Position numbers and translations under genes: made by a program. Of a DNA stretch of 64,000 nucleotides, positions 8,701-64,000 are shown piece after piece (the first letter of the stretch is position 1; every line of letters starts with the position of its first letter). This stretch comes from Phycisphaerae bacterium (GTDB lineage: Bacteria > Planctomycetota > Phycisphaerae > SM23-33). The DNA lies in the NCBI GenBank assembly GCA_049975485.1, contig JBNGDC010000004.1, positions 59,636-123,635 on the forward strand. The letters run 5' to 3'. The notes under the pieces were generated by a model that did not search any database, was not told the origin of the DNA, and saw nothing but the letters and a program-made list of their open reading frames with translations.

Positions 8701-8887
8701 GCTGGGGCTTCTGGCGGCCGACGCGGCCCACGACGCGGCTTGCCGACTGGAACTGGCCGCCCGCGAGAACCGCCTCGACGAGGCGGAGCAAATCTGCAGT
8801 GAGCTGCGGCGGGAAGTGCTCCGGTTTTCGGAGCAGCTCGCCTCGTACCGAAAGGACATGACCCATGCGACAAATTCTGGTGGCTGA
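5756..8887 (+). CDS. hybrid sensor histidine kinase/response regulator (periplasmic sensor, HisKA, HATPase, two receiver domains, C-terminal Hpt)
   Basis: Two TM segments flank a ~290-aa periplasmic region. H-box SHEIRNPMSVIIGL; G2 box GTGLGLAISSQLVEMMGGRIWVES; receivers (ILLAEDNPVNRE...DLVMMDGEMPEMNG...YIAKP); Hpt motif AHRLKGS at the C-terminus. The 5' start is uncertain (alternative MPGGS...). Confidence 0.9.
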   Translation: MAQLKSRLSWSLEPMPGGSAENSGRKSARSDSPGADNRPVSLPAVVLPVLAAALLAGGVGALVWWTHANFEQSLVGSFQSYQLTAARGIAGTMEDTFDDIQDNIRTISEYPQVLAGGSEAGDALDNYFRTRADVLSELGLTDSSGKVVHRSGEALAGGSIDDWPEFIWTRRSGSSYTGYGAALKNSEGERVVRIVSPLSDDGRFAGVLYALVSVRKLSVKSFTRPDRWAQNGWWVISPGGKVLFEADVESFDRQSQRAGFGVPAVIRRQVVRAVSTHGAGQGREGVTQLAGADGSPSGVLLAYTPVKLGTQRYALAMAAPKSDISVPITAHQRITYSLIAVLVMMFFAAGYISYRSAKAHLSLAEERRKAAESASRAKSDFLARVSHEIRNPMSVIIGLTEHLLDTKLNRSQQRYMRMVRQAGDWLLTVINDILDFSKIEAGRLDLASSDFSVRDCVRDTSELMSVRAEEKGLSLRFEVDADVPDMLVGDPGRLRQVLINLLGNAVKFTDEGEIGVRASLEADEGDTAVLHFVVTDTGPGIPPEKRREIFQAFAQAGTYSRERHSGTGLGLAISSQLVEMMGGRIWVESTVGKGSEFHFLVRLPRSSQQLAEDMEVSIERLRSLRVLVVDSEASNRDYLCGVLGDWGMDCQTCAGEQAGMELLRSGASDGKPFDIALVEAAADGVDGFALAGRIKAAPELSDTAVILMSRMGVRGDGARSEAAGAVAYLTKPIGRNLLAAAISAALDVAEGKAPPRLITRHSLRQSRRRLRILLAEDNPVNREHVSLLLEKWGHSVDHASNGKQAIDAWSKGDYDLVMMDGEMPEMNGLEAASEIRRREAGTGRHVPIIAMTAHALKGDRDCCLAAGMDDYIAKPMEPETLFTLMETLTNGESAEPTETPSMETSDESVSEKAPEEPSEAPWVVSFDEREALRRVGGKRETLCRLAKVFDENRDTMLTAVAEALDAGDAERLRQAAHRLKGSLGLLAADAAHDAACRLELAARENRLDEAEQICSELRREVLRFSEQLASYRKDMTHATNSGG

Positions 8888-9299
8888 CGACGATCCGGTC
8901 TATCAGGACCTGCTCAGAGACCTGCTGGAGGAGTGGGGCTACGAAACGATCGTTGTCGGCGACGGCGAAGCCGCCTGGGATATGCTCCAGCGGGACTCCG
9001 CCCCAAAACTGGTAATACTCGACTGGATGATGCCCGGCGTGGACGGATTCGAGATTTGCCGACGCCTCCGCGCCGACAATCAGAAACAGGACGTGTACGT
9101 CCTTCTGCTTACCGCCAGTCGCATGGAGGATGAGATAATCAAGGTGCTCGTCGCCGGCGCCGATGACTTCCTGCTCAAGCCCTTCCAGCCGCTGGAGCTG
9201 AAGATCCACCTCCGCGCGGCCAATCGCATACTGGACCTTCAGGAAGAGCTGTACTCCGAGCGGCAAGAGCGCGGCCGGAGCTGTCAGCGGCGCGCATAG
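8865..9299 (+). CDS. single-domain response regulator (CheY-like receiver)
   Basis: MRQILVADDDPVYQD...LDWMMPGVDGFE...FLLKPF. Overlaps the kinase gene by 23 nt. Confidence 0.85.
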   Translation: MRQILVADDDPVYQDLLRDLLEEWGYETIVVGDGEAAWDMLQRDSAPKLVILDWMMPGVDGFEICRRLRADNQKQDVYVLLLTASRMEDEIIKVLVAGADDFLLKPFQPLELKIHLRAANRILDLQEELYSERQERGRSCQRRA

Positions 9300-42158: not shown

Positions 42159-42245
42159 TTGCGAGGCAGCAGGCAACAGGCAGGTGTTAGGTCGTAGGTC
42201 CCAGGTTGCGGACGGGGTCCGGCAATACCGGCGCGAGCGCTAAAC

Positions 42246-42301
42246 GGTTTAACTGCTTAACGGCTCAACTGCTGAACCGATTAACCAGTCAACCAATCAT
42301 C
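42246..42301. repeat. tandem array of seven degenerate octamers NNNTNAAC (GGTTTAAC TGCTTAAC GGCTCAAC TGCTGAAC CGATTAAC CAGTCAAC CAATCATC)
   Basis: Read directly. In the convergent intergenic region between the PAP2 and acyltransferase genes. Confidence 0.5.
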
Positions 42302-42306
42302 CAGCC

Positions 42307-49956: not shown

Positions 49957-50293
49957 GCCCGCTGCGGACGGGGGAATTCAGTTGGGATTGTACATGGACA
50001 TGCCTGGCTACTGGTCACTATCTACGCGCGGGCAGTCCCGGCGCGGGCGGCAATCGCGTAATTCCAGTCATTTGCGGCTTGACGAATTCGAGGTCCGCGG
50101 ATACAAGTTTCAGCAGCAATGAAACATGCATCGGCCCAAATCCTGCGACAGCGTCAGATTGCGACGGTCCTGGCGATCGCGGTCCTGATTGCGCGCGCAG
50201 GAAGCGGGTCCGGCTGATACCACCACAAACCCGGTACACAAAGGCCCGCTTCCGGAAGGAGCGGGCCTTTTCTTTTGCCCAGGGAGAACGAAG

Positions 50294-51049
50294 ATGCTGA
50301 AGCGGCCATGGTATGAGGAACTGTTCGACGACATGTACGCGGCGGTCCTTGGCTCGGAAGCTCACGAATCGAAGGCGCCCCAGGAGGCCCGGTGCGTCAA
50401 GCGGTTGCTGCGCCTGCGGAAGGGACAGCGCGTCCTGGACTGCCCGTGTGGACTGGGCCGGCTGAGCCGCGGGCTGGCACGGCTTGGGCTGGAGGTTACA
50501 GGCGCGGACTTGATGGACTCTTACGTTCGCGAGGCCCGGCGCCGCGCGCGACGGGAAGGCCTGCCGGTCCGGTTCATCGCCAGTGACATGCGCGACCTGC
50601 CGTTCGAGGGGGAGTTCGACGCCGTTGTGAACTGGTTTACAAGCATCGGCTACTTCGACCGGGCGGGCGACCTGGCCGTCGCCCGGGCTGCGTTTGCGGC
50701 TCTGAAGCCGGGCGGATGCTTTCTCGTCGAGGCGATGAACAAGTCCTGGCTGCTGGCGCACTGGAACCCGGAGCCCAAGACAGCGACGGTGGGCGATGTG
50801 CAGGTGACGGCGGCCCCGCGATGGGACGCCCGGGCCGGCGTCATCCGGGACACGTGGGTCTTGCGGCGCGGCCGCGCGCGGCGCCGCCGAGAGTTAACGC
50901 TGCGCCCGTACAACAGCACGGAGATCCGCAAGCTGCTCCGCAGGGCCGGCTTCCGGGATATTTCGCTGCATCCGAATCCTCCGGGTAAGCGGTTCAGCCG
51001 GCATGCAAAGCGCTACATTGCCATCGGGACAAAGCCCCGGCGGCCTTGA
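50294..51049 (+). CDS. class I SAM-dependent methyltransferase
   Basis: Motif I VLDCPCGLGRLS; motif post-I DLMDSY. Start at 50294 (the ORF opens at 50189). Confidence 0.75.
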   Translation: MLKRPWYEELFDDMYAAVLGSEAHESKAPQEARCVKRLLRLRKGQRVLDCPCGLGRLSRGLARLGLEVTGADLMDSYVREARRRARREGLPVRFIASDMRDLPFEGEFDAVVNWFTSIGYFDRAGDLAVARAAFAALKPGGCFLVEAMNKSWLLAHWNPEPKTATVGDVQVTAAPRWDARAGVIRDTWVLRRGRARRRRELTLRPYNSTEIRKLLRRAGFRDISLHPNPPGKRFSRHAKRYIAIGTKPRRP

Positions 51050-51201: not shown

Positions 51202-51525
51202 ATGGCTACTTTGCATAATGTCATCCGAGTGGTGTTTTCGGCGTTAGCTGTGCTGCTGTCGGGCGGCTTTGCATACGGCTATAACGCAGTCTTCTATCAC
51301 AACAAAGTGGAACACTGTGGTCTAGATCTACCGGTCTTTACGTCGTTCGTATCCGCGGTCGCACCATGGGTTCTGCTCCTGTCGCCGGCGGTGCTGTGCG
51401 TGGGGCTTGCCTGGCGACGGAATGAACTCATTGTGCAGTTGGTTACGAACATTGGATGGCTCTTTGCTGTATCTTGGCCTCCGCTGTGCATCTGGGTCTG
51501 GAAGATTCCGGACGCACTTCTTTAG
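51202..51525 (+). CDS. small membrane protein (3 predicted TM helices), lower-GC gene
   Basis: AAGGAGAAG ribosome-binding site 5 nt upstream. Hydrophobic segments VVFSALAVLLSGGFAY, PWVLLLSPAVLCVGLAW and IGWLFAVSWPPLCIWVW. Codon third positions are visibly less GC-biased than in neighbouring genes. Confidence 0.5.
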   Translation: MATLHNVIRVVFSALAVLLSGGFAYGYNAVFYHNKVEHCGLDLPVFTSFVSAVAPWVLLLSPAVLCVGLAWRRNELIVQLVTNIGWLFAVSWPPLCIWVWKIPDALL

Positions 51526-51647
51526 CTCATAGATAGGCACTCTCGGTTCGTTGTAAAAACCACCCCGTCGGAGCGTGTCGGGGCAGGCCACCGTGACGCG
51601 CCTGTCTTCCGCCTTCGTCCCGCGGGCGACATCGACGCGACATGGCT

Positions 51648-51690
51648 GGTTACCGATTACAGGTTACCGGACACTGGCTACTGGTTACCG
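51648..51690. repeat. three copies of GGTTACCG at irregular spacing in the hydF 3' intergenic region
   Basis: Read directly: tGGTTACCGattacaGGTTACCGGacactggctacTGGTTACCGtg. Confidence 0.35.
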
Positions 51691-51711
51691 TGAGCAACGC
51701 AGTTGCCCACC

Positions 51712-52944
51712 CTACCGCGGCTGTAGCTTGCGGAATGTCTCCAGGGCTTCGGGGAAGGGGCCCAGGGCGCGCTGCAGGATGCCGAGCGAGTGTGCGATGG
51801 TCAGCCCGTAATTGGCTATGGGCACGCCGGCCTTTCGGCAGCGGACCATGCGCGACAGGACCTCGCGACGGTTCCACATGCACGCGCCGCAGTGCACGAC
51901 CAGCCGGTAGGGCGAGAGGTCCTCTGGGAAGTCGTGCCCCTGAGTGAAGTCGAACTCCAGCTCGCCGCCGACGCGCTGCCGCAGCCAGCGTGGGATCTTC
52001 ACGCGCCCGATGTCGTCGGCGATGGGGTGATGGGTGCAGGCCTCGGCTATCAGCACGCGGTCGCCGGCCTTCAGCCGATCCAGCGCCGTGACGCCGCGGA
52101 CGAACTCGTTCAGGTCGCCCTTGGCGCGGGCAAACAGAACGCTGAAGCCGGTCAACAGGACGTCCGGCGGCGTTTCGGCGGCCACCTTCGCGAACGCCTG
52201 GGAGTCCGTCACCACCAGCGCCGGCGGACGCTTCAGCCGGTCCAATGCGTCGCGAAGCTCGGTCTCCTTGGCCACCATGCAGTAGGCGTTGTGGTCCAGC
52301 GCGTCGCGGATGGACTGCACCTGCGGCAGTATGAGCCGGCCTTTGGGCGCCTCCAGGTCGATGGGCACGACCATCATGATCAGCTCGCCCGGGGGAACGA
52401 GGTCGCCGAGGATGGCCGGTGCGTTGATGAAGTCCTCCGGCGCCTGACGAATGAGCGCCTCGCGGAAGTCCAGCACGCCCTCGCCCGACGGCGCGACCGT
52501 ACGGACGACCGGCACATTGCGGGCGGCAAGCTCGTCCAGAACGTCGCCCGGCGGCTCGTAGAGGTCGAACTTGTTGAATACGACGATCGCGGGTATCTCG
52601 CGATGCTCCAGCTCCTCGAGCATGGTCTGCTCGAACTGCGCCCAGCCGCCCTCGCCGACGACGATGACGCCCACGTCGGTGCGGTCGAATATCTGCCGCG
52701 TGCGCTGGATGCGCAGCTCGCCGAGGTCGCCGACGTCGTCTATGCCGGCCGTGTCGATGAACAGCACAGGCCCGATCGGCAGCAGCTCCATCGGCTTTTC
52801 GACCGGGTCGGTGGTGGTCCCGGCCACGTCCGAAACAATGGCCACCGACTGGCGCGTGATGGCGTTGAGCAGCGAACTCTTGCCGACGTTCCGCCGCCCG
52901 AAGATGCCTATGTGCAGCCGAAAGCCCTTGGGTGTCTTTTCCAT
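51712..52944 (-). CDS. hydF: [FeFe] hydrogenase H-cluster maturation GTPase
   Basis: N-terminal GTPase ([13 protein letters not shown]). C-terminal FeS motif EACTHH...VVHCGAC (CxHx46HCxxC). Confidence 0.9.
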
Positions 52945-52980
52945 AGCAATCTGTCGGGCAGGTATGCCCGACCTGCATCC

Positions 52981-53028
52981 GGTTAACCGGCTAACCAGTT
53001 AACCAGTTAACCAATTAACCAATTAACC
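52981..53028. repeat. perfectly phased array of six octamers NNTTAACC (GGTTAACC GGCTAACC AGTTAACC AGTTAACC AATTAACC AATTAACC) in the hydG-hydF spacer
   Basis: Read directly. Begins 5 nt after the hydG stop and ends 37 nt before the hydF start codon. Confidence 0.6.
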
Positions 53029-53033
53029 GTTTG

Positions 53034-54458
53034 TCAGAAATAGAGGTCGCGGTCGTCGCTGGTGCGGATACGTCGCAGCCGTTCGGCAAGCTCATCCTTC
53101 ACCGAGCCGTCGGGCAGTTTCTGCAGCTCTTCGGCTATGCGTTTTTCGCCGACGGCGCGGGTCTGCGGCGAGGCGTAGTCGGTGAGGTACTCCTGCAGCG
53201 TGGTCAGGGCGTTGGGCGTGCAGAAGTTCTGAATGAACCCGGGAATCGCGAACTCCATAAAGTGCTCGCCGGTCCGCCCGAGCCGGTAGCACGCCGTGCA
53301 GAAACTCGGGATGTATCCGTCGGCCAGCAGCTCCTGCATCACCTCATCCAGCGTGCGCACGTCGCCGAGGGAGAACTGCTCGCGCTCCATCACCTGAGCG
53401 TCGCCGGCCTCGGTGTAGCCGCCGAGGTCGATCCGGCTGCCGGCATCTATCTGCGAGACGCCGAAGCCCATCACCTCGCGGCGGAGCTTCGCCGGCTCGC
53501 GGGCCGTGAGTATCAGACCGGTGTACGGAACCGACAGCCGCAGGATCGCCACCAGCCGCTTGAACTGCCAGTCGCTGACCTGCCACCTGCCGTCCAGTAC
53601 CGTCCCGGCCGCAGGCCTGAGCCGCGGGAAGCTGATGGTATGCGGACCGACGCCGTATCGGTCTCGAAAGTAGTTGGCGTGGGCGACCAGTCCTAGAACC
53701 TCGAACCGCCAGTCGTACAGTCCGAACAGCGCGCCTATGCCCACGTCGTCGCAGCCGGCCTCGAAGGCCCGGCTAAGCCCGTCCAGGCGGTAGAGGTAGT
53801 TGCCCTTGCGCGTATCGGCCGGGTGTATGCGGGCGTAGGTCTCGTGGTGATACGTCTCCTGGAATATCTGGTAGGTGCCGATCCCAGCGTCCTTGACGCG
53901 CTCGTAGCCCTCGTGGTCGAGCGGCGCGGCGTTGATATTCACTCGACGTATCTCACCGTGCCCGGAGCGGATGTTGTACACATGCCGCACGCATCGGGCG
54001 ATGCAGTCGGCGTCGTAGGCGGGGTGTTCGCCCCACACCAGTATCAGCCGTTTGTGCCCAGCGTCCTCCAGAGCGGTTACCTGTTCGCGGATGTCGTCTT
54101 CACTGAGCGTGCGACGCTGAACTTCCCTGTTGGAGCGACGAAAGGCGCAGTATGCGCAGTCGTTGACGCACTCGTTGCCGATGTAAAGCGGCGCGAACAG
54201 CACGATGCGATTGCCGTACACGCTGCGCTTCAACTCGCGGGCGGCCTCGAATATCTCGCCCACCAGGTCCTCATCCTCGGCCGCCAGCAGAACGGCCGTT
54301 TCGGCGACGTTCAGCGGCTCCTTGTCCATCGCCTTGGCGATTATCCCGCGCACGGCGGAGGGGTCCTGCGGTGTGTTGGCGATGAGTTTGTTCAGATGGT
54401 CGTCGTCTATGAAATCGACGGCGCCTTCACTGAGTGTCATGGTTGTCAATGGGCACAT
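53034..54458 (-). CDS. hydG: [FeFe] hydrogenase H-cluster radical SAM maturase (tyrosine lyase)
   Basis: Radical SAM motif CVNDCAYC. C-terminal CTAC-x22-C (CX2CX22C auxiliary cluster) is characteristic of HydG. GGAGG ribosome-binding site precedes the ATG at 54458. The ORF track opens much further upstream (55130). Confidence 0.9.
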   Translation of the reverse strand: MCPLTTMTLSEGAVDFIDDDHLNKLIANTPQDPSAVRGIIAKAMDKEPLNVAETAVLLAAEDEDLVGEIFEAARELKRSVYGNRIVLFAPLYIGNECVNDCAYCAFRRSNREVQRRTLSEDDIREQVTALEDAGHKRLILVWGEHPAYDADCIARCVRHVYNIRSGHGEIRRVNINAAPLDHEGYERVKDAGIGTYQIFQETYHHETYARIHPADTRKGNYLYRLDGLSRAFEAGCDDVGIGALFGLYDWRFEVLGLVAHANYFRDRYGVGPHTISFPRLRPAAGTVLDGRWQVSDWQFKRLVAILRLSVPYTGLILTAREPAKLRREVMGFGVSQIDAGSRIDLGGYTEAGDAQVMEREQFSLGDVRTLDEVMQELLADGYIPSFCTACYRLGRTGEHFMEFAIPGFIQNFCTPNALTTLQEYLTDYASPQTRAVGEKRIAEELQKLPDGSVKDELAERLRRIRTSDDRDLYF

Positions 54459-54484
54459 GATTACCTCCTTCCGGAGGGGGCAGC

Positions 54485-55531
54485 TCAAACTTTCGCGTGA
54501 CGGTCCAGGTAGCTGGGCGACGCGCCCGGTCCGACGCCGACGGTTCGCCCGATGGACGCGATTCTGTTTCGGATGCAGGCGCTGCAGTCGCCGGCCGACT
54601 CGGCTATGCACGCCTTGGCCGGGTATATCTCGTACATGGGTCGGTAGCGCGGCGGCGTGACGTTGGGCATAACCACGTTCGCGCCGCATTGTAGGGCCGA
54701 TTCCCGTCCGTCCACGGTGTTGATCGTCGCCAGGGCCGTGGTCGCCGGTATGTTGGACGACGGCCGCACGATGCGGGTCAGCGCGATCATCTTTCTGGTC
54801 ATCAGTTCGGTGTTGGGCACCTGGTCCGCACCCGCCGGCGCCGCTTTGGCCAGTGGCGTCGCCGGGTGCGGTATGAACGGACCCAGCCCGATCATGTCCA
54901 GCTCCAGCTCGTCGAACAACTCGACGTCGGCGGCGAGGTCGTCGTAAGTTTGACCCGGTATGCCGACCATGCAGCCGCTGCCGACCTCGTAGTCCAGCCG
55001 TCGCAGCTCCTCGAGCACGGCCAGTCGCTCTCCCAGCGATCGGCCGTCGCCGGCATGCAGGCGGGCATACAGCCGTTCGTTGGACGTCTCGAAACGCAGC
55101 AGGTAACGGTCGGCTCCGGCGCGGCGCCACAGGGCCAGCTCGTCACTGGACCGCTCGCCCAGACTCAGCGTGACGGCCAGGTTGGTTTGGCTCTTGATGC
55201 TCTCTGTCAGGCGGGCGATGCGATCGCCGGTCAGTTGCGGGTCTTCGCCGGCCTGGATGACGACCGTTCCATAACCCAGCCGCTGCGCCTCGCGTGCGGC
55301 GGCGACTACCTCCTCGTTGCTCATGCGGTACCGCCGCAGCCCCCGGCGGGTCGCACTGATGCCGCAGTACGAGCACCGCCGCGTGCAGTAGCTGGATATC
55401 TCGATAAGCCCGCGAAGATGCACCTCCTCGCCGACGTTCTCGCGGCGGACGGCGTCGGCCTCGCGCAGAAGCTTCTCCAGCCGCCGCGGGTCGGTCTCGA
55501 GGAGTCGGCTTTTTATCCACTCATGATCCAT
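54485..55531 (-). CDS. hydE: [FeFe] hydrogenase H-cluster radical SAM maturase
   Basis: CTRRCSYC radical SAM motif. BioB-like fold, 348 aa. Flanked by hydG and hydF. Confidence 0.9.
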   Translation of the reverse strand: MDHEWIKSRLLETDPRRLEKLLREADAVRRENVGEEVHLRGLIEISSYCTRRCSYCGISATRRGLRRYRMSNEEVVAAAREAQRLGYGTVVIQAGEDPQLTGDRIARLTESIKSQTNLAVTLSLGERSSDELALWRRAGADRYLLRFETSNERLYARLHAGDGRSLGERLAVLEELRRLDYEVGSGCMVGIPGQTYDDLAADVELFDELELDMIGLGPFIPHPATPLAKAAPAGADQVPNTELMTRKMIALTRIVRPSSNIPATTALATINTVDGRESALQCGANVVMPNVTPPRYRPMYEIYPAKACIAESAGDCSACIRNRIASIGRTVGVGPGASPSYLDRHAKV

Positions 55532-56696
55532 CTTCGCCGGCTTCCTGCTGTTCGGTCTGCTGATCGCCGACGGCGTCGGCGTCTCGGAGCGTCACGGTAA
55601 AGGTCGAACCGACGTCCGGCTCGCTGCTGACGTTCACTTCGCCGCCGTAGAGCGACACCAGCTTGCGGACGATCGACAGCCCAAGCCCGCTGCCGAGGAT
55701 GTTGCGGGTCTTTTCATTCTTTATGCGGGTGAATTCCTGGAACAACCGCTCGGTGTCTTCCGGGGACATTCCTATGCCCGTGTCGGCGACGCTGATGGTG
55801 ACGGTGTCGTCCTCCCGGCTGACGGTGACGTCCACGCGTCCCTCGGGCTTGTTGTACTTCACGGCGTTGGAGATGAGGTTGTTCAGGATTATCTCCAGCT
55901 CGCCACGGTCGCATTTCAGCGGGGCCGGGCCGTCGGCATGCAGCTGGAGCGTCAGGTTCTTCTCGTCGTCGGCCGCCCGGGCGCCGTCCAGCGCCTCGCG
56001 GGCGACCTCGACGACGTCCTGCTCGGCGATATCGCGCTGCTTCTGTCCCGACTCGATCCGCGTCAGGTCAAGAAGGTCCAGAATGAGCTTCCTCATGCCT
56101 TCCAGGCGTGTAAGCGACCTGTCCAGCATGTGTTTGTAGGCCTCCGGATCGTCGCCCGCGGAGCCATCGCGAATGATCCGCAGATAGCCCTCGACGGCCG
56201 AGAGGGGCGACTTCAGCTCGTGCGCCAGCACCGAGATGAACTGAAAGCGGACCTGCCGCTTTTCCTCGGCCAGTTTCTCGGCCTGACGGCGGATGAGCAG
56301 ATGCCTGGCCGCCTTTCTCACCACGCCTCGCAGCTCGTCGGGCGTGAACGGCTTGGCCAGGAAGTCGTACGCGCCGCGCTTGGTGGCGGTTACGGCGGTG
56401 TCCAGCGAGGCGTAAGCGGTGATGACGATGGTCAGCATCCTGCCTTCGTCGTCGGGGAGCTTCTGCAGCACGTCCAGCCCGCTCATGCCGGGCAGTTTGT
56501 GGTCCAGCAGAAGGATGTCGGGCTGGTTCTCGCCGATGATCTCCAGCGCCTGCTCACCGGTCTCGGCCTGGGCTACATCGAAGCCGTACTCGCCCTCGAT
56601 TTCGTCGAAGCGCACGGTGAAGTCCCGCAGCGCCCGCTGAACGCCCAGACGCATGCCGGCCTCGTCGTCCACAACCAGTACGTTCAGTTTCTCCAT
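55521..56696 (-). CDS. cytoplasmic response-regulator/histidine-kinase hybrid (REC-HisKA-HATPase, no output domain)
   Basis: N-terminal receiver (VLVVDDEAGMRLG...ILLLDHKLPGMSG...FLAKPF). H-box LAHELKSPLSAVEG. G2 GSGLGLSIVRKLV. No TM segment. Confidence 0.85.
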   Translation of the reverse strand: MEKLNVLVVDDEAGMRLGVQRALRDFTVRFDEIEGEYGFDVAQAETGEQALEIIGENQPDILLLDHKLPGMSGLDVLQKLPDDEGRMLTIVITAYASLDTAVTATKRGAYDFLAKPFTPDELRGVVRKAARHLLIRRQAEKLAEEKRQVRFQFISVLAHELKSPLSAVEGYLRIIRDGSAGDDPEAYKHMLDRSLTRLEGMRKLILDLLDLTRIESGQKQRDIAEQDVVEVAREALDGARAADDEKNLTLQLHADGPAPLKCDRGELEIILNNLISNAVKYNKPEGRVDVTVSREDDTVTISVADTGIGMSPEDTERLFQEFTRIKNEKTRNILGSGLGLSIVRKLVSLYGGEVNVSSEPDVGSTFTVTLRDADAVGDQQTEQQEAGEDGS

Positions 56697-56703
56697 CTTC
56701 GCC

Positions 56704-57105
56704 TCACTTCCCGAGCAAACGCTCGATTTCCGCGCGAAGCTGCTCGAACCGCACCGGCTTGGTCAGCATCACGTCCGCCTTCACCCAGGAACGTTCCTCC
56801 TCGGTCGCGGCGTCGAACTCCAGACCCGTCTCAGACGCCATCGCGGTGACCACTATCACCGGCAGCTCCGGCCGGTGCTTCTTGAGGCGGTAGCACAGTA
56901 CGAACCCGTCGTCCATGTGCTCCATCATGACGTCCACCACCGCCAGGTCCGGCCTGGATGATTCGGCGGCCTGCATCGCCTCATCCGCCGACTGGGCGGC
57001 GAGAACGTCGTACCCGGCGGCCTGCAACTGGAGCTGCTGCTGGGTCAGGAAGTCCGGGTCGTCGTCAACGACGAGGATCGTCGGTTTGTCTTTCTGTTCG
57101 CTCAT
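56704..57105 (-). CDS. single-domain response regulator receiver
   Basis: ILVVDDDPDF...LAVVDVMMEHMDDGF...LTKP. Contains an ~20-aa insert also present in its paralog. Confidence 0.85.
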   Translation of the reverse strand: MSEQKDKPTILVVDDDPDFLTQQQLQLQAAGYDVLAAQSADEAMQAAESSRPDLAVVDVMMEHMDDGFVLCYRLKKHRPELPVIVVTAMASETGLEFDAATEEERSWVKADVMLTKPVRFEQLRAEIERLLGK

Positions 57106-57485
57106 TTGCCTTCCTTGAGCAGTTCGTCAACCTTTTTGCCCAGGGCCTTCGGCTCGAAGGGCTTCTCCAGGACCTCCACCACGGGCAGCCAGGTCTCGTC
57201 CGGCTCAAACTTGAACGGTACCCCCGTCGCCTCCCGCACGCCGGTCAGCAGCAGAATCGGAAGGTCCGGGTGTTTCTCGTGGATCTGCCGGGCGACTTCG
57301 AACCCGGCCGTCTGCGTCTCCATCATCACGTCCAGCACGATCACGTCCGGCACGGATTCCTCCATGCGCTTAAGCGCCTCGGCGGCACTGTAAGCGGCCG
57401 TCACCTCGTGTCCGTGGCTTCGCAGGACCACCGAGTTGATCTCGATGAGGTCAACGTCGTCGTCAACCAGAAGTACGTTAGCCAT
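57102..57485 (-). CDS. single-domain response regulator receiver (paralog of 56704 gene)
   Basis: VLLVDDDVDL...VIVLDVMMETQTAGF...LEKPF. Confidence 0.85.
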   Translation of the reverse strand: MANVLLVDDDVDLIEINSVVLRSHGHEVTAAYSAAEALKRMEESVPDVIVLDVMMETQTAGFEVARQIHEKHPDLPILLLTGVREATGVPFKFEPDETWLPVVEVLEKPFEPKALGKKVDELLKEGK

Positions 57486-57517
57486 GTTCCAGTCCTCTTT
57501 TCGTTACGCGGCGGAAA

Positions 57518-59524
57518 TCATTCCTGCTTGCCCCGGCGGGGCAGTGTTATCGTGAAGGTTGTTCCGGTCGGACCTTGCTGGAGGTCCGTGTTCGACTCCA
57601 CGCTGATGTCGCCCTGGTGCATCTTCACCACGCCGTAGGTCACGGCCAACCCAAGCCCGGTGCCTCGGCCCATCTGTTTGGTGGTGAAGAACGGGTCGAA
57701 TATCTTCCTGAGGTTGTCCTGCGGTATGCCGACGCCGGTGTCGCTGACGGTGAATCGGACGTTTTCCGCGTCGCCGCTGGTGCGGACGGTAAGCGTCCCT
57801 TTCTCGCCCATGGCATCGACGGCATTGGTCATCAGGTTGGTGAGAACTTGTATCATCTGGTCCTTGTCCAGTTCCGCCTGGGCGTCCTGCAGCTCGTTTT
57901 CCACAACAAGCTCGATGCCCTCGGGCAGCTTCACCGACTTCAGCGCCTCATTGACCAGAGCGCCCACGTCGGTCATTTCCGGCACAACCTTGTTCTGCCT
58001 GGCGAAGTGCAGCAGACCCGAGACGATCCTTTTGCACCGGTCCGCCTGGTTGGTAATCATAGCCAGGTCATCTTTCAGCTTCGGGTCACCGGTGTACTCG
58101 TCCAGCAGCAGGTGCGAGTACATTAATACTACGCCCAGCGGATTGTTGACCTCGTGAGCAATGCCCGCCGCGAGCTGTCCCATGCTGGCGAGCTTCTCGG
58201 ACTGCATGAGCTGCTCCTGCGTGTCCGCCAGTTCATCGACGGCCTTGCGGAGCTGGTCGATCGTGTTCGGCAGGCACATTTCGCTCTCGGCCAGTCCCTT
58301 GTATATCGCGACGGCGTGCTCGCGGCAGGTGTCGTAGCCGCAGGCGCCGCAGTTCAGCTCGTCCTCGCTGCTGTGTTTGCCCATCCGGGCCATTATTGCG
58401 GCGATTTCATCTTCCGACGGCACCGCTATGCGCTGGTCCTGCGGCGTGTAGCCGCGGTGCAGGTCGATACCTTCTACCCTTTGCAGCCATTTCTCGTATT
58501 CGCGGTCGGAGGCCTGGGCGAGCCGTTCGCGCACGTACCTGCTGACGCGGCTGCGACGGCTGAACAGCGGGGCCTCCGTGGTCATGCCTGCGCCCATTAT
58601 GCAGCCGTTGCAGCAGAGGACCTCCAGCAAGCGGGCGTCCAGGTCGCCGTTGCCGAACTCGCGGATGGCCTCGACGAAATTCGTCCGCCCGTCGGTGGCC
58701 ACGACCTGACCGTCGATGAGGTCCTCGTCGATCTTCGCCGCCTGCAAAAGTCCGCGGCTTATCGGAAAAAGCGCGCCCGGGCCTGCGTGCGGCGGGTCGA
58801 AGTCGCTCTCGCCCGCGTCGTCGAGACCCACGCCCGCCTCCCGCAGCATGTTCCTGAGCTCCGCGAACGTTATGGCCGCGTTGATCTCGTCGGGCACATT
58901 CCGGCTGGCGGCCTCGCCTTTCTTGGCGATGCACGGGCCGATGAACACCACCTTAAGGTCCTCGCCATGCAGCTCCCGCAGCACCCTCGCCGTGGCGACC
59001 ATCGGCGAGACGATGGGAGCCAACTGGTCCACCAGGTCGGGATAGTAGCGCTCCACATAGGCGACTATCGCCGGGCAACTGGTGGCGATGTAGCGCCCCT
59101 GGGGGTCGTCGCTGAGCAACTGTCGGTATTGCCTTGCGACCAGGTCGGCGCCGAAGCCGACCTCGCAGACGTAATCGAAGCCCATTGCCCGTACGGCAGC
59201 GACGACATTGTGCCAGTCGCAGTCGGCGAACTCCGCCGGAAAGCTCGGAGCCAGACAGGCCGCCACCTTATCGTCGCTTTTCAGCAGTCGGCGCACGTCC
59301 GAGGTGCTGTCCAGCACTTCCTTGGCCCGCTGACTGCACACCCGCACGCAGTTGCCGCAGCCGATGCAGCGCTCGGGTATGACCTGCGCCTGGCCGTCGG
59401 AGATGCGGATGGCCTTGGCGGGGCACTCGCGCACACAGGTGTAGCACACGCGGCAGTGCTCGCCGATGGTCCTGACAAGTGTTATGTTTTCCGCACCTTC
59501 CACGATACAGGCCTCCTGGAGCAA
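57518..59524 (-). CDS. sensory-type [FeFe]-hydrogenase H-domain protein fused to histidine kinase transmitter (HydS-like sensor kinase)
   Basis: N-terminal part: two CxxCxxCxxxCP ferredoxin motifs; TSCP (L1-like); [11 protein letters not shown] (L2 MPCxxKxxE-like); [13 protein letters not shown] (L3); then CGACGYDTC-x16-C (Cx2Cx4Cx16C). C-terminal part: H-box [15 protein letters not shown]; N-box [12 protein letters not shown]; G1 DTGVGI; G2 [10 protein letters not shown]. Confidence 0.85.
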
Positions 59525-59525
59525 C

Positions 59526-61247
59526 CTAGAGCAGCACTTCGCGCGGCGCGTAGCTGGTGTGCAGAAGCTCGTGACTCTTCGGCCCCAGCGGGCTGCCGAG
59601 GAACTCCTCGTAGAGCCGCTTGACGGCGGGATTGTCGTGCGATGTCCGCAGTCGCTCGTGGCGGTCTATCTTGTACAGTGCCTTCATGCGCGCCTTGACG
59701 GCATCGCGGTCGGCGCCGTAGGGCTGCCCGCCGCCGGCGATGCACCCGCCGGGGCAGGTCATCACCTCGATAAAGTGCAGGTCGTCCCTGCCGGCGCGAA
59801 CCTCGTCCAGCACCTTCCGTGCCGCGCCAAGACCGCTGGCGACGGCCACGCCCAGCTTCAGCCCGTCTATGGTGAGCGTGGTCTGCTTGAGACGCTTGTC
59901 TCCGCGGACCGGACGCAAGTCGAGATTGTCCATGTTCCGTCCGGTGATGAGCCGATGGGCCGTGCGGACCGCCGCCTCCATTACGCCGCCGCTGGCACCG
60001 AAGATCTTGCCGGCGCCGCTTCGCTGCTCGAAGGGGGTATCCGCGCTGTCCGGCTCGAGCGTGTCCAGCTCCAGCCCGCGCAGGCGTATCATCCTCGCCA
60101 GCTCCCGGGTGGTGAGCACCGCGTCGATATCCCACATGCCGTCGCGGGCCATCTCAGGCCGACGCGCCTCGAACTTCTTCGCGGTGCAGGGCATGACGGC
60201 CACCGAGTAAATCTTCCGCGGGTCGATGCCCTCGCGATCGGCGAAGAACGTCTTTATCACCGCCCCGAGCATCTGCTGCGGGCTCTTGCAGGTGCTGAGG
60301 TTTTCCACGAACTCCGGGTGGAATTGCTCGACGAACTTGATCCAGCCCGGTGAGCAGCTTGTCATCATCGGCAGTCGTCCACCGTTCTGGATGCGGTGCA
60401 CCAGTTCGCTGGCCTCCTCCATGATGGTCAGGTCGGCTGAGAAGCTGGTCTCGAAGACGCGGTCGAAGCCCAGCCGTCGCATGGCCGTGGTCATGGTGCC
60501 GCAGATGTCCTTGCCGGGCTTGAGGCCGAACTCTTCCGCCAGGGTTACCGAGACCGCCGGGGCGTGCTGGACCACCACCAGCCGGTCGGGGTCGTTCAGC
60601 GCCTCGGCGATCTCCTTCATGTGGCTCTGTTCCCGCAGAGCGCCGGTGGGGCAGGCCGTGACGCATTGTCCGCAGTTGACGCAGCTCGAGACGTTCAGAC
60701 CCTCGTCGAACGCCGTGCCCACGGTCGCCCTGCTGCCGCGCCCGATGAAGTCGATGGCGGAGACGCCCTGAACCTCCTCGCATATTCTTACGCATCGGCC
60801 GCAGAGGATGCACTTGGCCGGGTCGCGGACGATCGCCGGGCTGGACGTGTCCAGCTTGCGCTGGGGGTTTTCGCCGCCGTAACGCCGTTCACGCACGCCG
60901 AGTACTTCGGCGAGTCTCTGAAGTTCGCACGTTCCGTTGCGTACGCAATAGAGGCAGTCGTCGGGATGCCCGGCCAGCAGCAGCTCCACGACGGTCTTGC
61001 GGGCGCGGAGTACGCGAGGGGAGTGCGTGAGCACCTTCATGCCCTCGCGCACCTGGTGCGCGCAGCTCGGGACGAGCTTGCCTTCGTCGGGAAGCTCCAC
61101 CACGCACATGCGGCAGGCGCCGCTGGGCGGCAGGCCCGGCACGTGGCAGAGCGTAGGCACGTCCACACCCGCCCGCTTCAGGGCGTCCAGAAGCATCTCG
61201 CCCTCGCGGGCCTCGACCGTCCTGTTATTGACGTCTATCCGAACCAC
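59526..61247 (-). CDS. hydA: [FeFe] hydrogenase catalytic subunit (CpI-like domain architecture: 2Fe-2S + FeS clusters + H-domain)
   Basis: 573 aa. N-terminal plant-type 2Fe-2S and FeS domains. H-domain motifs MTSCSPGW (L1 variant), AVMPCTAKKFE (L2) and EVMTCPGGCIAGGGQP (L3). Aligns block-by-block with Clostridium pasteurianum CpI as I recall it. Confidence 0.9.
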   Translation of the reverse strand: MVRIDVNNRTVEAREGEMLLDALKRAGVDVPTLCHVPGLPPSGACRMCVVELPDEGKLVPSCAHQVREGMKVLTHSPRVLRARKTVVELLLAGHPDDCLYCVRNGTCELQRLAEVLGVRERRYGGENPQRKLDTSSPAIVRDPAKCILCGRCVRICEEVQGVSAIDFIGRGSRATVGTAFDEGLNVSSCVNCGQCVTACPTGALREQSHMKEIAEALNDPDRLVVVQHAPAVSVTLAEEFGLKPGKDICGTMTTAMRRLGFDRVFETSFSADLTIMEEASELVHRIQNGGRLPMMTSCSPGWIKFVEQFHPEFVENLSTCKSPQQMLGAVIKTFFADREGIDPRKIYSVAVMPCTAKKFEARRPEMARDGMWDIDAVLTTRELARMIRLRGLELDTLEPDSADTPFEQRSGAGKIFGASGGVMEAAVRTAHRLITGRNMDNLDLRPVRGDKRLKQTTLTIDGLKLGVAVASGLGAARKVLDEVRAGRDDLHFIEVMTCPGGCIAGGGQPYGADRDAVKARMKALYKIDRHERLRTSHDNPAVKRLYEEFLGSPLGPKSHELLHTSYAPREVLL

Positions 61248-61259
61248 GGTTCACCTCGT

Positions 61260-63209
61260 CTATTCCACTACCACGGCGTCAAAGCGGCATGCGTCCAGGC
61301 ACGAACCGCAGCCGATGCACTTGTCAGGCACGATGTAGTGCGGACTCTTGGGCGCCCCCATGATGGCGCCGGTGGGGCACTTCTTGGCGCACAGTGTGCA
61401 GCCGACGCACTTGTCCTCGTCGATGCTGTATCGCAGCAGCTGCGCGCACGCCCCGGCCGGGCAGCGACGCTCGAAGACGTGCGCCTCGTACTCGTCGCGG
61501 AACCACCGCAGCGTGCTCAGCACGGGGTTCGGAGCGGTCTGTCCCAGCCCGCATAAGCTGGTTTCGCGGATGACCTCGGCCAGGCGGTTCAGGTAAACCA
61601 CGCCCTTGAAACGCTCCAGCGCGTCGAAGTCCTTCTCGCTGCCCCGGCTGCGGGTGATGCTCTCGAGTATCTCCAGCATTCTCCGCGTGCCTTCGCGGCA
61701 GGGGATGCACTTGCCGCAGCTTTCGCGCTGGATGAACTCCATGAAGAACTTCGCCAGGTCCACCATGCAGGTGGTCTCGTCCATCACCACCAGTCCGCCG
61801 GAGCCCATCATCGCGCCGACGGTTTTCAGCGACTCGTAGTCGATGGGTATGTCCAGGTGCTGCTGGGGTATGCACCCGCCGGATGGACCGCCTATCTGGA
61901 CGGCCTTGAAGCTCTTGCCGTCCGGCACGCCTCCGCCGATGTCGAAGATGATCTCCCGCAGCGGCGTTCCCATCGCCACTTCGATGAGTCCGGTCCGCTC
62001 GACCCGCCCGGAAAGGGCGAATACCTTGGTGCCCTTGCTGTTTTCTGTTCCGACGGCCGCGAACCGCTCCGGGCCGCCGTCGAGTATGCCAGGCAGGTTC
62101 GCGAGGGTCTCGACGTTGTTGATGACGGTGGGCTTGTCGAACAGGCCCTTGACCGCCGGGAAAGGCGGCCGGGGACGGGGCATGCCGCGCCGACCCTCGA
62201 TGCTGTGTATCAGCGCGGTTTCCTCGCCGCAGACGAAGGCCCCGGCGCCCTGCTTGATGCGGATGGTCAGCGAGAATCCGCTGTCCATGATGTTCCGTCC
62301 GAGCAGGCCGTTCCGCTCGGCCTGTTCGATCGCCTCGCGCAGGCGCCGGATCGCCAGCGGGTACTCCGCGCGGATGTACACGTACGCCTTGGTCGCGCCG
62401 ATGGCGTACGCGGCGATGGCCATCCCCTCGATGAGCCGGTGGGGATCGCCTTCGATGACGGCTCGGTCCATGAATGCGCCCGGGTCGCCCTCGTCGGCAT
62501 TGCAGACCAGGTATTTCTGGTCGGCCGGTGTGTCGAGGGCGAACATCCACTTCTTGCCGGTGGGGAAGCCGCCGCCGCCCCGTCCGCGAAGCCCGCTGTC
62601 CAGCACCTGCCTGCAGACGTCGCGAGGCGGGACCTCCCGCAGCACTCGCGCCAGCGCCCGGTAGCCGCCCCAGGCGAGGTACTCCTCGATTCGTGTGGGG
62701 TTTATGCGGCCGCAGTTGGCCAGCACCCAGCGCGTCTGGCGGGCGAAGAACGGGTGTTCGTCCAAAAACGGGACGCCGTCGTACGGCGTCAGGTGCTCGC
62801 AGCGATGCTGGCCGAGTACGTGCTCCGATGGCGTTTGCCCGGCGAGCATATCGCCCAGCAGTGCATCAACCATATCGGGTGTAACGGCCTCGAATGCCAC
62901 TCGGCAGCGGTCGGGCAGTTGCACCTCCATAATCGGCTCGGCCGCACAGAGACCGATGCAACCGACCTCGACGACGTCGGCCTCGACATCGCTGTTGTCC
63001 AGGTATTCACTGACGGCGCGGAGGGTCTTTCCGGCGCCGGCGCCCAGGCCGCACGTGCCCGTGCCTACGAATACGACCGGTCTGTCGAGCTTCTCCCGCC
63101 GCAGCGCCGAGGCCAGCTCTGTGAACTCGCCCACGTCCATGCCGTGGGGAGTCAGCAGGTCGGCGTCGCTGTCGCGCTTAGTTTTCGCCGGCTTCGTTGC
63201 GGTAGGCAT
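61260..63209 (-). CDS. hydB: NuoF-like flavoprotein subunit of multimeric [FeFe] hydrogenase (NAD(P)H/FMN/4Fe-4S, C-terminal 2x[4Fe-4S], N-terminal 2Fe-2S)
   Basis: GGGFPTGKKW (FMN/NADH site). CGKCIPCREG (N3 cluster). C-terminal CVGCTLCAKKCP and CIGCGSCLDAC ferredoxin motifs. Confidence 0.9.
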   Translation of the reverse strand: MPTATKPAKTKRDSDADLLTPHGMDVGEFTELASALRREKLDRPVVFVGTGTCGLGAGAGKTLRAVSEYLDNSDVEADVVEVGCIGLCAAEPIMEVQLPDRCRVAFEAVTPDMVDALLGDMLAGQTPSEHVLGQHRCEHLTPYDGVPFLDEHPFFARQTRWVLANCGRINPTRIEEYLAWGGYRALARVLREVPPRDVCRQVLDSGLRGRGGGGFPTGKKWMFALDTPADQKYLVCNADEGDPGAFMDRAVIEGDPHRLIEGMAIAAYAIGATKAYVYIRAEYPLAIRRLREAIEQAERNGLLGRNIMDSGFSLTIRIKQGAGAFVCGEETALIHSIEGRRGMPRPRPPFPAVKGLFDKPTVINNVETLANLPGILDGGPERFAAVGTENSKGTKVFALSGRVERTGLIEVAMGTPLREIIFDIGGGVPDGKSFKAVQIGGPSGGCIPQQHLDIPIDYESLKTVGAMMGSGGLVVMDETTCMVDLAKFFMEFIQRESCGKCIPCREGTRRMLEILESITRSRGSEKDFDALERFKGVVYLNRLAEVIRETSLCGLGQTAPNPVLSTLRWFRDEYEAHVFERRCPAGACAQLLRYSIDEDKCVGCTLCAKKCPTGAIMGAPKSPHYIVPDKCIGCGSCLDACRFDAVVVE

Positions 63210-63651
63210 CTATTACGTCCTTTACCGAATCCGGTGTCAGCTTCGCGTGGAATTCACCGTTCACGGACATCACCGGCGCCAATCCACAGGCGCCGATACA
63301 TGCGACTACTTCCAGACTGAACTGCCCGTCGGGGGTGGTCTGCCCCGGCTCGAGCTTCAACTCCCGCTTGACCGCCTCCAGTACGGCCGATGCGCCCTTG
63401 ACGTGGCAGGCGGTGCCCCGGCAGAGCTGAATGTGGTAGCGACCCAGCGGCTGGAACCGGAACTGGTTGTAGAAGGTCGCCACCCCATAGATCTTGCTCG
63501 CGGGCAGGTCCAGGTGGCGTCCCACACTGGTAACGGCCTCCCGCGAGAGGAACCCGCAGGCGTCCTGGATTTCCTGGAGTATGGGAATCAGGTCGTCCCG
63601 CGAGCCGCCCTGGTGGCGCGCGAGTATTTCCTCCACCGCGTTATCAGGCAT
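63178..63651 (-). CDS. hydC: NuoE-like thioredoxin-fold [2Fe-2S] subunit of multimeric [FeFe] hydrogenase
   Basis: CRGTACHVKGA ... CIGACGLAP are the NuoE 2Fe-2S Cys motifs. Overlaps hydB by 32 nt. Confidence 0.85.
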   Translation of the reverse strand: MPDNAVEEILARHQGGSRDDLIPILQEIQDACGFLSREAVTSVGRHLDLPASKIYGVATFYNQFRFQPLGRYHIQLCRGTACHVKGASAVLEAVKRELKLEPGQTTPDGQFSLEVVACIGACGLAPVMSVNGEFHAKLTPDSVKDVIDAYRNEAGEN

Positions 63652-64000
63652 GTGTGCTCAATCCTTCCTTTCCCTGACTGCGCTGTCTGGCGAAAAACGC
63701 CGCCTTCTCCAGCGAGCTGGTCAGGTCCACGTTTTCCACATACACGCCCCCCGGCACATGCAGCCGGACCGGCGCGAAGTTCATGATTCCGCTTACGCCG
63801 GCGGCTACGAGCGCCTCGGCCACCTGCTGGGCGGCGGACGCAGGCACGGCGATGATCGCGGTATGGATTCCCCGCTGTGTTATCTCCTCGTGCAGGTCGG
63901 AAACCGGCTTGCAGGGGCAGCCGTGTATCAGCCGTTCGGTAACCGCCGGGTCCTCGTCGAAGGCGACGGTTATGTCGAGCTTGGGTCTCCTGCCGGCGAA
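63644..64000 (-). CDS. rex: redox-sensing repressor Rex, C-terminal part (gene starts beyond window end)
   Basis: Open frame to the window edge. ...IAVPASAAQQVAEALVAAGVSGIMNFAPVRLHVPGGVYVENVDLTSSLEKAAFF matches the Rex C-terminal Rossmann/swap-helix region (Rex ...GILNFAPV...V.NVDL..EL). Overlaps the hydC start by 8 nt. Confidence 0.7.
   Translation of the reverse strand, partial: FAGRRPKLDITVAFDEDPAVTERLIHGCPCKPVSDLHEEITQRGIHTAIIAVPASAAQQVAEALVAAGVSGIMNFAPVRLHVPGGVYVENVDLTSSLEKAAFFARQRSQGKEGLSTHA

Follow-up and report, generated by a model that had tools for sequence, protein, structure and literature searches.

The characterised sensory [FeFe]-hydrogenases include TmHydS of Thermotoga maritima (group C) and TamHydS of Thermoanaerobacter mathranii (group D). 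Both are described as putative sensors, and their signature is that the H-cluster cysteines are kept, the proton-relay cysteine equivalent to C299 of CpI is lost, and M353 of CpI is replaced by Gly, Ser or Thr, in a protein with a 2x[4Fe-4S] domain at the N-terminus and a Cx2Cx4Cx16C motif towards the C-terminus (PMC8163306; PMC10055695). The 'sub-type V BfuABCT' arrangement, reported from Hydrogenedentota, Caldithrix abyssi (Calditrichota) and Bacteroidota, pairs a group A3 bifurcating hydrogenase with a group C hydrogenase that carries a histidine kinase domain and is encoded after bfuA (PMC11406978). The C. abyssi genes Cabys_3675-3679, in the order rex-hydCBA-hydS, form an operon that starts with rex and is preceded, at 38 bp, by a Rex box (PMC5317091). 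We describe here a related locus at positions 51712-64000 of a 64,000-nucleotide stretch of DNA from a Phycisphaerae bacterium (Planctomycetota; contig JBNGDC010000004.1; the whole stretch is called the window below). At this locus a predicted sensory hydrogenase-histidine kinase fusion, HydS-HK, is accompanied by two single-domain receivers, REC1 and REC2, and by REC-HK, a soluble receiver-kinase hybrid.

The locus shares with BfuABCT V and C. abyssi the order hydC-hydB-hydA followed by the hydrogenase-kinase fusion, and with C. abyssi the upstream rex, whose Rex box recurs in relatives of the window operon. To what those two papers describe it adds two receivers, REC-HK and three maturases, in one co-oriented string, and a host among the Phycisphaerae. 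Receivers and REC-HK are absent from the discussion in both papers (the term 'response regulator' occurs 0 times in PMC11406978), and our literature searches found no description of them. What is new relative to the papers we could find is that the hydrogenase-kinase fusion is constantly accompanied by REC-HK and by a single-domain receiver of a distinctive kind.

The open reading frame (ORF) list and Pfam give eleven consecutive, co-oriented minus-strand ORFs with the expected domain content, in the order rex-hydC-hydB-hydA-HydS-HK-REC1-REC2-REC-HK-hydE-hydG-hydF; the features below lie on the minus strand except where a plus sign is given. Neighbors overlap at four junctions (rex/hydC, 8 nt; hydC/hydB, 32 nt; REC1/REC2, 4 nt; REC-HK/hydE, 11 nt) and are otherwise closely spaced (hydB/hydA, 12 nt; hydA/HydS-HK, 22 nt; HydS-HK/REC1, 32 nt; REC2/REC-HK, 7 nt; hydE/hydG, 32 nt), the sole gap above 32 nt being the 89 nt between hydG and hydF, which contains an octamer array. 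Because the genes below 51712 are on the plus strand and convergent with hydF, hydF is taken as the last gene of the cluster. The tightly joined, co-oriented gene string of the original prediction is thus borne out by coordinates and Pfam, and all of its gene identities hold, HydA, HydE, HydG and HydF exceeding curated NCBIfam cut-offs. We consider that the eleven genes probably form one operon, of about 12.6 kb. A promoter and terminator consensus scan within the operon found no excess over shuffled sequence.

HydS-HK (57518-59503) matches Pfam for two Fer4, Fe_hyd_lg_C, FeS (PF04060), HisKA and HATPase_c, its parts running from the 2x[4Fe-4S] domain through the H-domain and a Cx2Cx4Cx16C motif to HisKA and HATPase. 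Its length is 661-668 aa: the longest ORF reaches 59524, and the start was placed at 59503 because a 100%-identical database protein (P0001), encoded on a 124-kb contig of a Phycisphaerae metagenome-assembled genome, has 661 aa. Conservation was judged from an alignment of 83 family members. The H-cluster cysteines C150, C198, C305 and C308 are invariant (83/83), as are K201 and E204. Position 149, equivalent to CpI C299, is D, S, T, A or N, never Cys (Ser in the window), and position 196, equivalent to CpI M353, is an invariant Gly. The eight N-terminal cysteines are present in 82/83 sequences; in the C-terminal four-Cys motif C392, C395 and C417 are invariant and C400 is found in 82/83. The kinase motifs (H457, N567, D595/G597/G599 and G621/G623/G625) are likewise invariant. 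The fusion therefore carries the published sensory-hydrogenase signature, in keeping with its earlier identification as a sensor.

Like HydS-HK, TmHydS and TamHydS have the N-terminal 2x[4Fe-4S] domain, the lost C299, a small residue at M353 and the Cx2Cx4Cx16C motif, and they too are encoded beside a bifurcating HydABC. The third H-cluster motif of HydS-HK differs from theirs, reading L-x-C-x-G-C with the invariant cysteine pair spaced Cx2C, and the C-terminus differs as well. TmHydS ends in a PAS domain and has separate proteins as partners, and TamHydS has no signalling domain, whereas in HydS-HK the kinase is fused and HisKA-HATPase directly follows the four-Cys motif, taking the place of the C-terminal PAS domain by which the literature defines group C. 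We considered whether an overlooked PAS domain might separate the H-domain from the kinase and rejected this: Pfam found none, and residues 313-435 are all-helical in the AlphaFold2 model (mean pLDDT 77, about 90 in the H-domain). The four-Cys motif (392-417) continues straight into the H457-bearing DHp helix. The kinase core is best matched by AtoS/ZraS. The HydDB subgroup labels (C1 or C3) are applied inconsistently to kinase-linked forms in the literature, and the subgroup definitions used here come from secondary citations.

REC-HK (55521-56696, 391 aa; Pfam Response_reg-HisKA-HATPase_c) has both of its signalling halves intact. Across 74 orthologues neither the receiver residues D10, D11, D65 and K115 nor the kinase residues H159, N277, D305/G307/G309 and G335/G337/G339 vary; the position of T93 holds T or S. 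The two halves resemble different families: the receiver is closest to AtoC/NtrC/LuxO, with HupR among its solved matches, and the kinase core to HK853 and PhoR/PnpS.

The two small receivers, each a single Response_reg domain by Pfam, are of two types. REC2 (56704-57105, 133 aa), the conserved core type B, is 40-61% identical to the receiver that adjoins HydS-HK in most related loci, across phyla, and has the family motif D-[LV]-M-M-E-x4-G-F with the conserved acceptor Asp. REC1 (57102-57485, 127 aa), the accessory type A, is sporadic, occurring in a minority of related loci; its phosphotransfer residues (D8/D9/D10, D52, T81 and K108) are all present, and the solved structure that matches it best is that of RR468 (4ja2/3dge_C), with which HK853 forms a cognate pair. 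Among 85 single-domain receivers D52 is invariant (85/85), D8-D10 nearly so, and T/S81 and K108 are conserved. Phosphotransfer residues are thus intact in all four two-component proteins and conserved in 74-85 orthologues of each component. The two receivers had been called paralogous; two receivers there are, but paralogy was overstated, and a recent duplication is rejected, REC1 and REC2 being only 34% identical and belonging to two old types.

Searches of Pfam and NCBIfam found no HPt or Spo0B-like family in any operon protein, and there is no DNA-binding response regulator in the operon or the 64-kb window, as the earlier reading of the locus had it. The only other two-component genes in the window are a hybrid kinase with two receiver domains (5756-8887, +, 1043 aa) and the stand-alone receiver that follows it (8865-9299, +, 144 aa), at a locus unrelated to the operon.

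In a scan at species level, with each species represented by a single genome, at least 571 genomes proved to carry a relative of HydS-HK. The 120 best database relatives have identical domain architecture at 62% identity or more. Synteny was counted in the best 80 of the at least 571 loci, each count taking only loci with enough flanking DNA; the loci were annotated by comparison with the window proteins, and Pfam annotation of two further neighbourhoods, L001 and L002, confirmed the result (related loci are numbered from L001). These 80 loci span about 20 phylum-level labels, including Planctomycetota, Hydrogenedentota, Sumerlaeota, Acidobacteriota, Myxococcota, Desulfobacterota, Bacteroidota, Fibrobacterota, Verrucomicrobiota, Thermoleophilia, Melainabacteria, Elusimicrobia, WOR-3 and others. 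REC-HK lies at most three genes downstream of HydS-HK in 71/74 loci, and hydA at most two genes upstream in 66/74, with the full hydC-hydB-hydA upstream in 55/63. A rex gene is found upstream in 25/61 loci and downstream, in Bacteroidota directly after REC-HK, in 15/56. At least one maturase follows downstream in 35/56 loci and all three in 17/56. Single-domain receivers number 0, 1 and 2 in 12, 47 and 12 of 71 loci. Recurrence of the gene order under about 20 phylum-level labels puts the arrangement far beyond chance, and the adjacency of REC-HK and hydA favors a functional link; relatives had been proposed as the place to look for loss of the sensor kinase and receivers.

The reverse search gave a matching picture. 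All 13 matches to REC-HK of at least 40% identity on metagenome contigs adjoin an upstream kinase gene. In 11 this gene can be recognised as HydS-HK, and in the other two (L083, L086) the contig ends within the kinase and leaves a fragment. More distant REC-HKs (30-38% identity) stand behind sCache_3-HAMP membrane kinases whose kinase core resembles that of HydS-HK. In these sister cassettes (L094, L098, L099, L100 and L103, all on metagenome contigs) an sCache_3-HAMP-HisKA-HATPase kinase is accompanied by a REC-HK as large as that of the window and, in some, by a single-domain receiver. Because distant REC-HKs pair with sCache-HAMP kinases, the kinase and REC-HK look like a conserved signalling module with exchangeable input, reused with other sensors, which is also new relative to the papers we could find.

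The arrangement had been thought unusual. That assessment falls, since the cassette is common and partly in print (PMC11406978; PMC5317091): the window locus is the fullest version of a cassette that is widespread and has in part been described, complete and compact rather than exceptional. Clustering of all unassigned ORFs in 82 loci found no family common to the phyla that could be a shared output protein. It did return clade-specific extras, namely an aspartase-like Lyase_1 protein, RibF-like and SpoIIE/PP2C-like proteins in Bacteroidota, and NarL-type regulators. In the Bacteroidota loci (L047, L052, L054, L055, L058, L059, L061 and others) extras stand upstream of hydC and divergent from it: a second, divergent hydrogenase-like gene (about 620-630 aa), with a gene for a SpoIIE/PP2C-type phosphatase-like protein (about 394 aa) next to it. 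A RibF (FAD synthetase)-like gene of about 307 aa follows rex. The SpoIIE/PP2C-like and RibF-like identities were judged by eye from sequence. A second divergent hydrogenase-like gene is also part of BfuABCT V (PMC11406978), and we find it in Hydrogenedentota as well as Bacteroidota loci; the Bacteroidota loci may combine two different H2-sensor outputs.

The reading we favor, with rather better than even confidence, is a two-tier kinase cascade running from HydS-HK to REC-HK to the single-domain receivers. H2 would reduce the H-cluster of HydS-HK, and the redox change would pass via the C-terminal four-Cys cluster, directly before the DHp helix with no PAS domain between. The kinase would read the redox state of that cluster, which would set autophosphorylation at H457. 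The AtoS/NtrB-like kinase of HydS-HK would then phosphorylate D65 of the NtrC/AtoC-like receiver of REC-HK, and this phosphorylation would switch the HK853/PhoR-like kinase of REC-HK, acting on the RR468-like receivers, with REC2 as the core receiver and REC1 as an accessory. A response regulator encoded elsewhere may be a further target of REC-HK, or its target in place of the receivers. Output, which would come either from such a regulator or from a single-domain receiver acting by protein contact, would adjust the expression of hydrogenase or fermentation genes, or enzyme activity, to ambient H2. Rex would independently couple transcription of the whole operon to NADH/NAD+, and co-transcribed maturases would supply H-clusters for HydA and the sensor alike. 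HydS-HK and REC-HK are taken as the core pair because the 12 loci that lack a single-domain receiver retain REC-HK; together with the family matches, this favors the proposed order. The pairing of the REC-HK kinase with REC1 is suggested by their resemblance to HK853 and its cognate RR468.

Several points weigh against this reading. The direction and order of phosphotransfer are drawn from family-level resemblance. Covariation, measured as mutual information with average product correction between each DHp domain and each receiver in 58 loci, returned top pairs that recur in all four combinations and track the split between Bacteroidota and others; the pair HydS 489/REC-HK 17 looks canonical, with few independent changes in this clade-dominated set. 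Across the loci no DNA-binding regulator recurs as a consistent neighbor of the cassette; those of NarL type occur in a few Bacteroidota loci only. The literature contains no experiment on any member of the hydrogenase-kinase fusion family, and H2 sensing by group C [FeFe]-hydrogenases is still called putative (PMC8163306; PMC10055695). As to the operon, the case for a single transcript comes from overlaps and short gaps; the 5′ end of rex, the promoter and the Rex operator lie beyond the window; and the hairpin-forming hydG-hydF spacer could uncouple the expression of hydF.

Two other readings of the output are each held tentatively, at well below even confidence. The sensor kinase, receiver and REC-HK might be a self-contained module with exchangeable input, in which the D-[LV]-M-M-E-x4-G-F receiver is terminal and no transcription factor takes part. 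The H2 level may then be relayed by protein contact, for example onto Rex or HydABC; rex directly follows REC-HK in Bacteroidota loci. If true, this would mean post-translational or Rex-coupled control of the bifurcating hydrogenase. Alternatively, the receivers could be phosphate sinks or competitors, the output being a NarL- or NtrC-type regulator elsewhere that REC-HK phosphorylates. The variable copy number of the receivers speaks for this, and NarL-type REC-HTH regulators stand beside the cassette in a few Bacteroidota loci (L049, L062 and L067, and the family found in L014, L049, L064 and L068). The type-B receiver, however, is kept across phyla with its distinctive motif, beyond expectation for a dispensable sink, and the lack of a consistently linked DNA-binding regulator counts against this reading as well.

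A multi-step phosphorelay had been proposed for the locus. In its classical His-Asp-His-Asp form, phosphate would pass from HydS-HK to a single-domain receiver, then to the DHp histidine of REC-HK in the manner of Spo0B, and on to a distant DNA-binding regulator. The position of single-domain receivers between the two kinases in most loci suits such a relay, as do the presence of Spo0F among the better solved matches of the REC-HK receiver and the absence of a DNA-binding regulator from the operon and window. We nevertheless judge it unlikely, because there is no HPt domain or degenerate Spo0B-like protein and because REC-HK looks like a true kinase rather than a passive phosphotransferase, its N, G1 and G2 boxes being invariant in 74/74 sequences. 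A relay would moreover leave the invariant receiver Asp of REC-HK without a role, and 12 of 71 loci keep REC-HK with no single-domain receiver. A cascade from kinase to kinase is the better fit.

A similarly low probability attaches to the idea that HydS-HK reads, through its Fe-S chain, the reduction state of ferredoxin or NADH rather than H2, its kinase reporting that state, as a redox or electron-flux sensor or as a fourth, regulatory subunit ('BfuT') docked on HydABC. Its N-terminal 2x[4Fe-4S] ferredoxin-like domain and extra C-terminal cluster would fit this role, its gene nearly always comes directly after hydA, and it has been named subunit T of the Bfu complex (PMC11406978). But the invariant H-cluster cysteines, K201 and E204 point to a bound H-cluster, a costly and H2-specific cofactor; both characterised relatives, TmHydS and TamHydS, are H-cluster proteins that react with H2; and Rex, in the same operon, already covers NADH/NAD+ sensing. 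That the two-component genes are an unrelated insertion between hydA and hydE is barely credible: the gene order shared under about 20 phylum-level labels already contradicts it, as do the REC-HK orthologues of at least 40% identity, found only beside an upstream kinase that is HydS-HK wherever the contig is complete.

HydABC is, by its subunit composition and matches, of the electron-bifurcating type and is predicted to be linked to NADH and ferredoxin; the trimeric class is group A3 in HydDB and carries the name 'group A6' in NCBIfam. This agrees with the earlier assignment, solved bifurcating enzymes being the best matches to HydA and HydB. The NuoE-like [2Fe-2S] subunit HydC (63178-63651; Pfam 2Fe-2S_thioredx, 1.8e-52) passes the NCBIfam NuoE model NF005722 at 157 bits against a cut-off of 141. 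HydB (61260-63209), the NuoF-like FMN/NADH subunit (Complex1_51K, NADH_4Fe-4S and Fer4 x2), has the N-terminal extension and C-terminal 2x[4Fe-4S] domain of a Bfu-type B subunit, and matches the solved bifurcating enzymes 7t2r_B, 9n5u_B, 7q4v_B, 8a6t_B and 7p5h_B over nearly its full length (E 1e-184 to 1e-216). The catalytic subunit HydA (59526-61247; Fer2_4, NADH-G_4Fe-4S_3, Fer4, Fe_hyd_lg_C and Fe_hyd_SSU) passes NF040763, 'NADH-dependent [FeFe] hydrogenase, group A6', at 818.6 bits against 765; its best solved relatives are Thermoanaerobacter kivui HydA1 (8a6t_A, E 2.7e-183, residues 1-569) and Acetobacterium woodii HydA1 (7q4v). The first H-cluster motif of HydA (residues ~297-303) reads TSCSPGW instead of the textbook TSCCPxW. 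We considered this as an anomaly or defect and rejected it: the working A. woodii HydA1 (7q4v) carries the identical motif, which makes TSCSPGW a normal variant of bifurcating enzymes. In a 79%-identical relative (L001, 4480-7746) HydB is 1088 aa long, with a C-terminal half fused that is like GltD or pyridine-nucleotide-disulfide oxidoreductases, and one of the receivers is found on the upstream side of HydS-HK rather than after it. Close relatives thus differ in enzyme subtype and keep the signalling module.

The three H-cluster maturases close the operon. The radical-SAM proteins HydE (54485-55531; TIGR03956, 311 bits against a cut-off of 254.6) and HydG (53034-54452; TIGR03955, 495 bits against 312; C-terminal Cx2Cx22C motif) are followed by the maturation GTPase/scaffold HydF (51712-52944; TIGR03918, 560 bits against 325.6; Pfam HydF_dimer and HydF_tetramer).

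The rex gene (63644-64000) runs off the window end, leaving visible the C-terminal 118 residues, the CoA_binding or NAD(H)-binding Rossmann part only (Pfam CoA_binding, 2.4e-13). Its nine best NCBIfam matches are all Rex models, with scores under the cut-offs because the protein is truncated; full-length orthologues occur in L001 and L002 and contain both domains, Put_DNA-bind_N and CoA_binding in L001. Since the operon's own promoter is not within the window, Rex operators were sought in relatives. With the Rex box taken as TTGTGAA-N4-TTCACAA and a threshold of at least 11/14 matches no more than 200 nt upstream of rex, 20 of the 26 related rex-hydC loci have a box, compared with 0.8% of control windows. 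Among them is L003, a relative with 87% identity, whose box CTGTGAAGCTGTTCACAC stands 31 nt upstream of rex. The predicted Rex control of the operon, and by homology Rex autoregulation of the whole gene string, are thereby supported indirectly. A Rex-box-like palindrome with one mismatch, TTGTGAACTGGTTTACAA, also occurs at 50625-50642 (+), about 1.1 kb past the hydF end and inside a methyltransferase coding sequence (50189-51049, +); a site with one mismatch is unlikely by chance, about 0.75 sites with up to three mismatches being expected per window. Between the methyltransferase gene and the hydF end, convergent with the operon, lies an ORF of 107 aa (51203-51525, +) with lower GC, a good Shine-Dalgarno sequence and hydrophobic, membrane-segment-like stretches.

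The elements in the hydG-hydF spacer occupy 52953-53028. An array of six octamers, GGTTAAYY (52982-53028; period 8, 5.9 copies, 89% matches, score 66 by TRF), is self-complementary, and an 8-bp GC-rich hairpin (52953-72) follows it, 8 nt before the hydF ATG. As RNA the spacer has a predicted folding energy of -49.4 kcal/mol (z = -7.0), and 0/200 shuffles were as stable. An octamer array also occupies the hydG-hydF gap in L003. Whether such arrays serve to express hydF differentially or to stabilise the mRNA can only be guessed at. Many relatives, across phyla, have an aspartase-like Lyase_1 gene in this gap (L002, L005, L006, L012, L048; fragments in L009 and L023), for example the aspartate-ammonia-lyase/fumarase-like gene at 16071-17480 of L002 (Pfam Lyase_1 and FumaraseC_C). 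It is missing in the window, L003 and L001, a distribution that suggests a dispensable accessory role in H-cluster maturation, and the short hydG-hydF gap is best read as a scar of its loss.

On the 3′ flank of the operon (51561-51693) a heptamer run at about 51645-51693 reads, on the operon strand, GGTAACC AGTAGCC AGTGTCC GGTAACC TGTAATC GGTAACC; GGTTACC has three copies in 36 nt here against 11 on that strand across the whole window. It is followed by a terminator-like hairpin and T-run (51575-51561), a consensus match only. Arrays like GGTTAAC or GTAACC with a period of 7-9 nt occupy intergenic gaps in the window at 42239-42304 as well as at the two places above, and in relatives including L003 (14685-14720, 16055-16080), L005 (3233-3354, 10341-10493) and other Planctomycetota loci. 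Self-complementarity, or an inverted array as partner, is frequent among them and would give long hairpins; in the window and L003 they flank hydF on both sides. An Rfam scan of the whole window found no riboswitch or known RNA, and the arrays were unmatched.

For more than 10 years the role of sensory [FeFe]-hydrogenases as H2 sensors has been called 'putative', with no signalling output demonstrated. With the sensor fused to its kinase and the likely partners encoded adjacent, H2-dependent autophosphorylation and phosphotransfer could be directly measurable, and the family, its sensor and kinase being one polypeptide, would give the first direct biochemical read-out on H2 sensing by group C [FeFe]-hydrogenases. 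The set of kinase, receiver and REC-HK is a constant associate of bifurcating hydrogenases across many anaerobic phyla. Fermenters may therefore widely use it, in parallel with control by Rex and NADH, to match their H2 output to the surrounding H2 level, with relevance for syntrophy, for H2 cycling in gut and sediment, and for engineered H2 production.

The logic proposed here has parallels among known signalling systems. In the [NiFe] H2-sensing systems of Cupriavidus necator and Rhodobacter capsulatus, a low-activity hydrogenase (HoxBC/HupUV) reports H2 to a histidine kinase (HoxJ/HupT) that controls hydrogenase genes through the NtrC-type regulator HoxA/HupR; sensor and kinase are separate and bridged by PAS, and the regulator binds DNA. 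The logic is parallel, but metal centre and fold are unrelated, HydS-HK unites sensor and kinase in a single polypeptide, and the NtrC-like receiver is joined to another kinase instead of a DNA-binding domain. For the lower tier, the HK853/RR468 pair of T. maritima provides the best solved matches of the REC-HK kinase and REC1. The cascade as a whole resembles kinase-to-kinase cascades via a receiver-kinase hybrid, for example CheA3-CheS3-CheY3 of Rhodospirillum centenum. There the first kinase acts on the N-terminal receiver of the second, which acts on a single-domain receiver, as proposed for the window; the window locus differs in having no chemotaxis context and in that its pairing is suggested by resemblance only.

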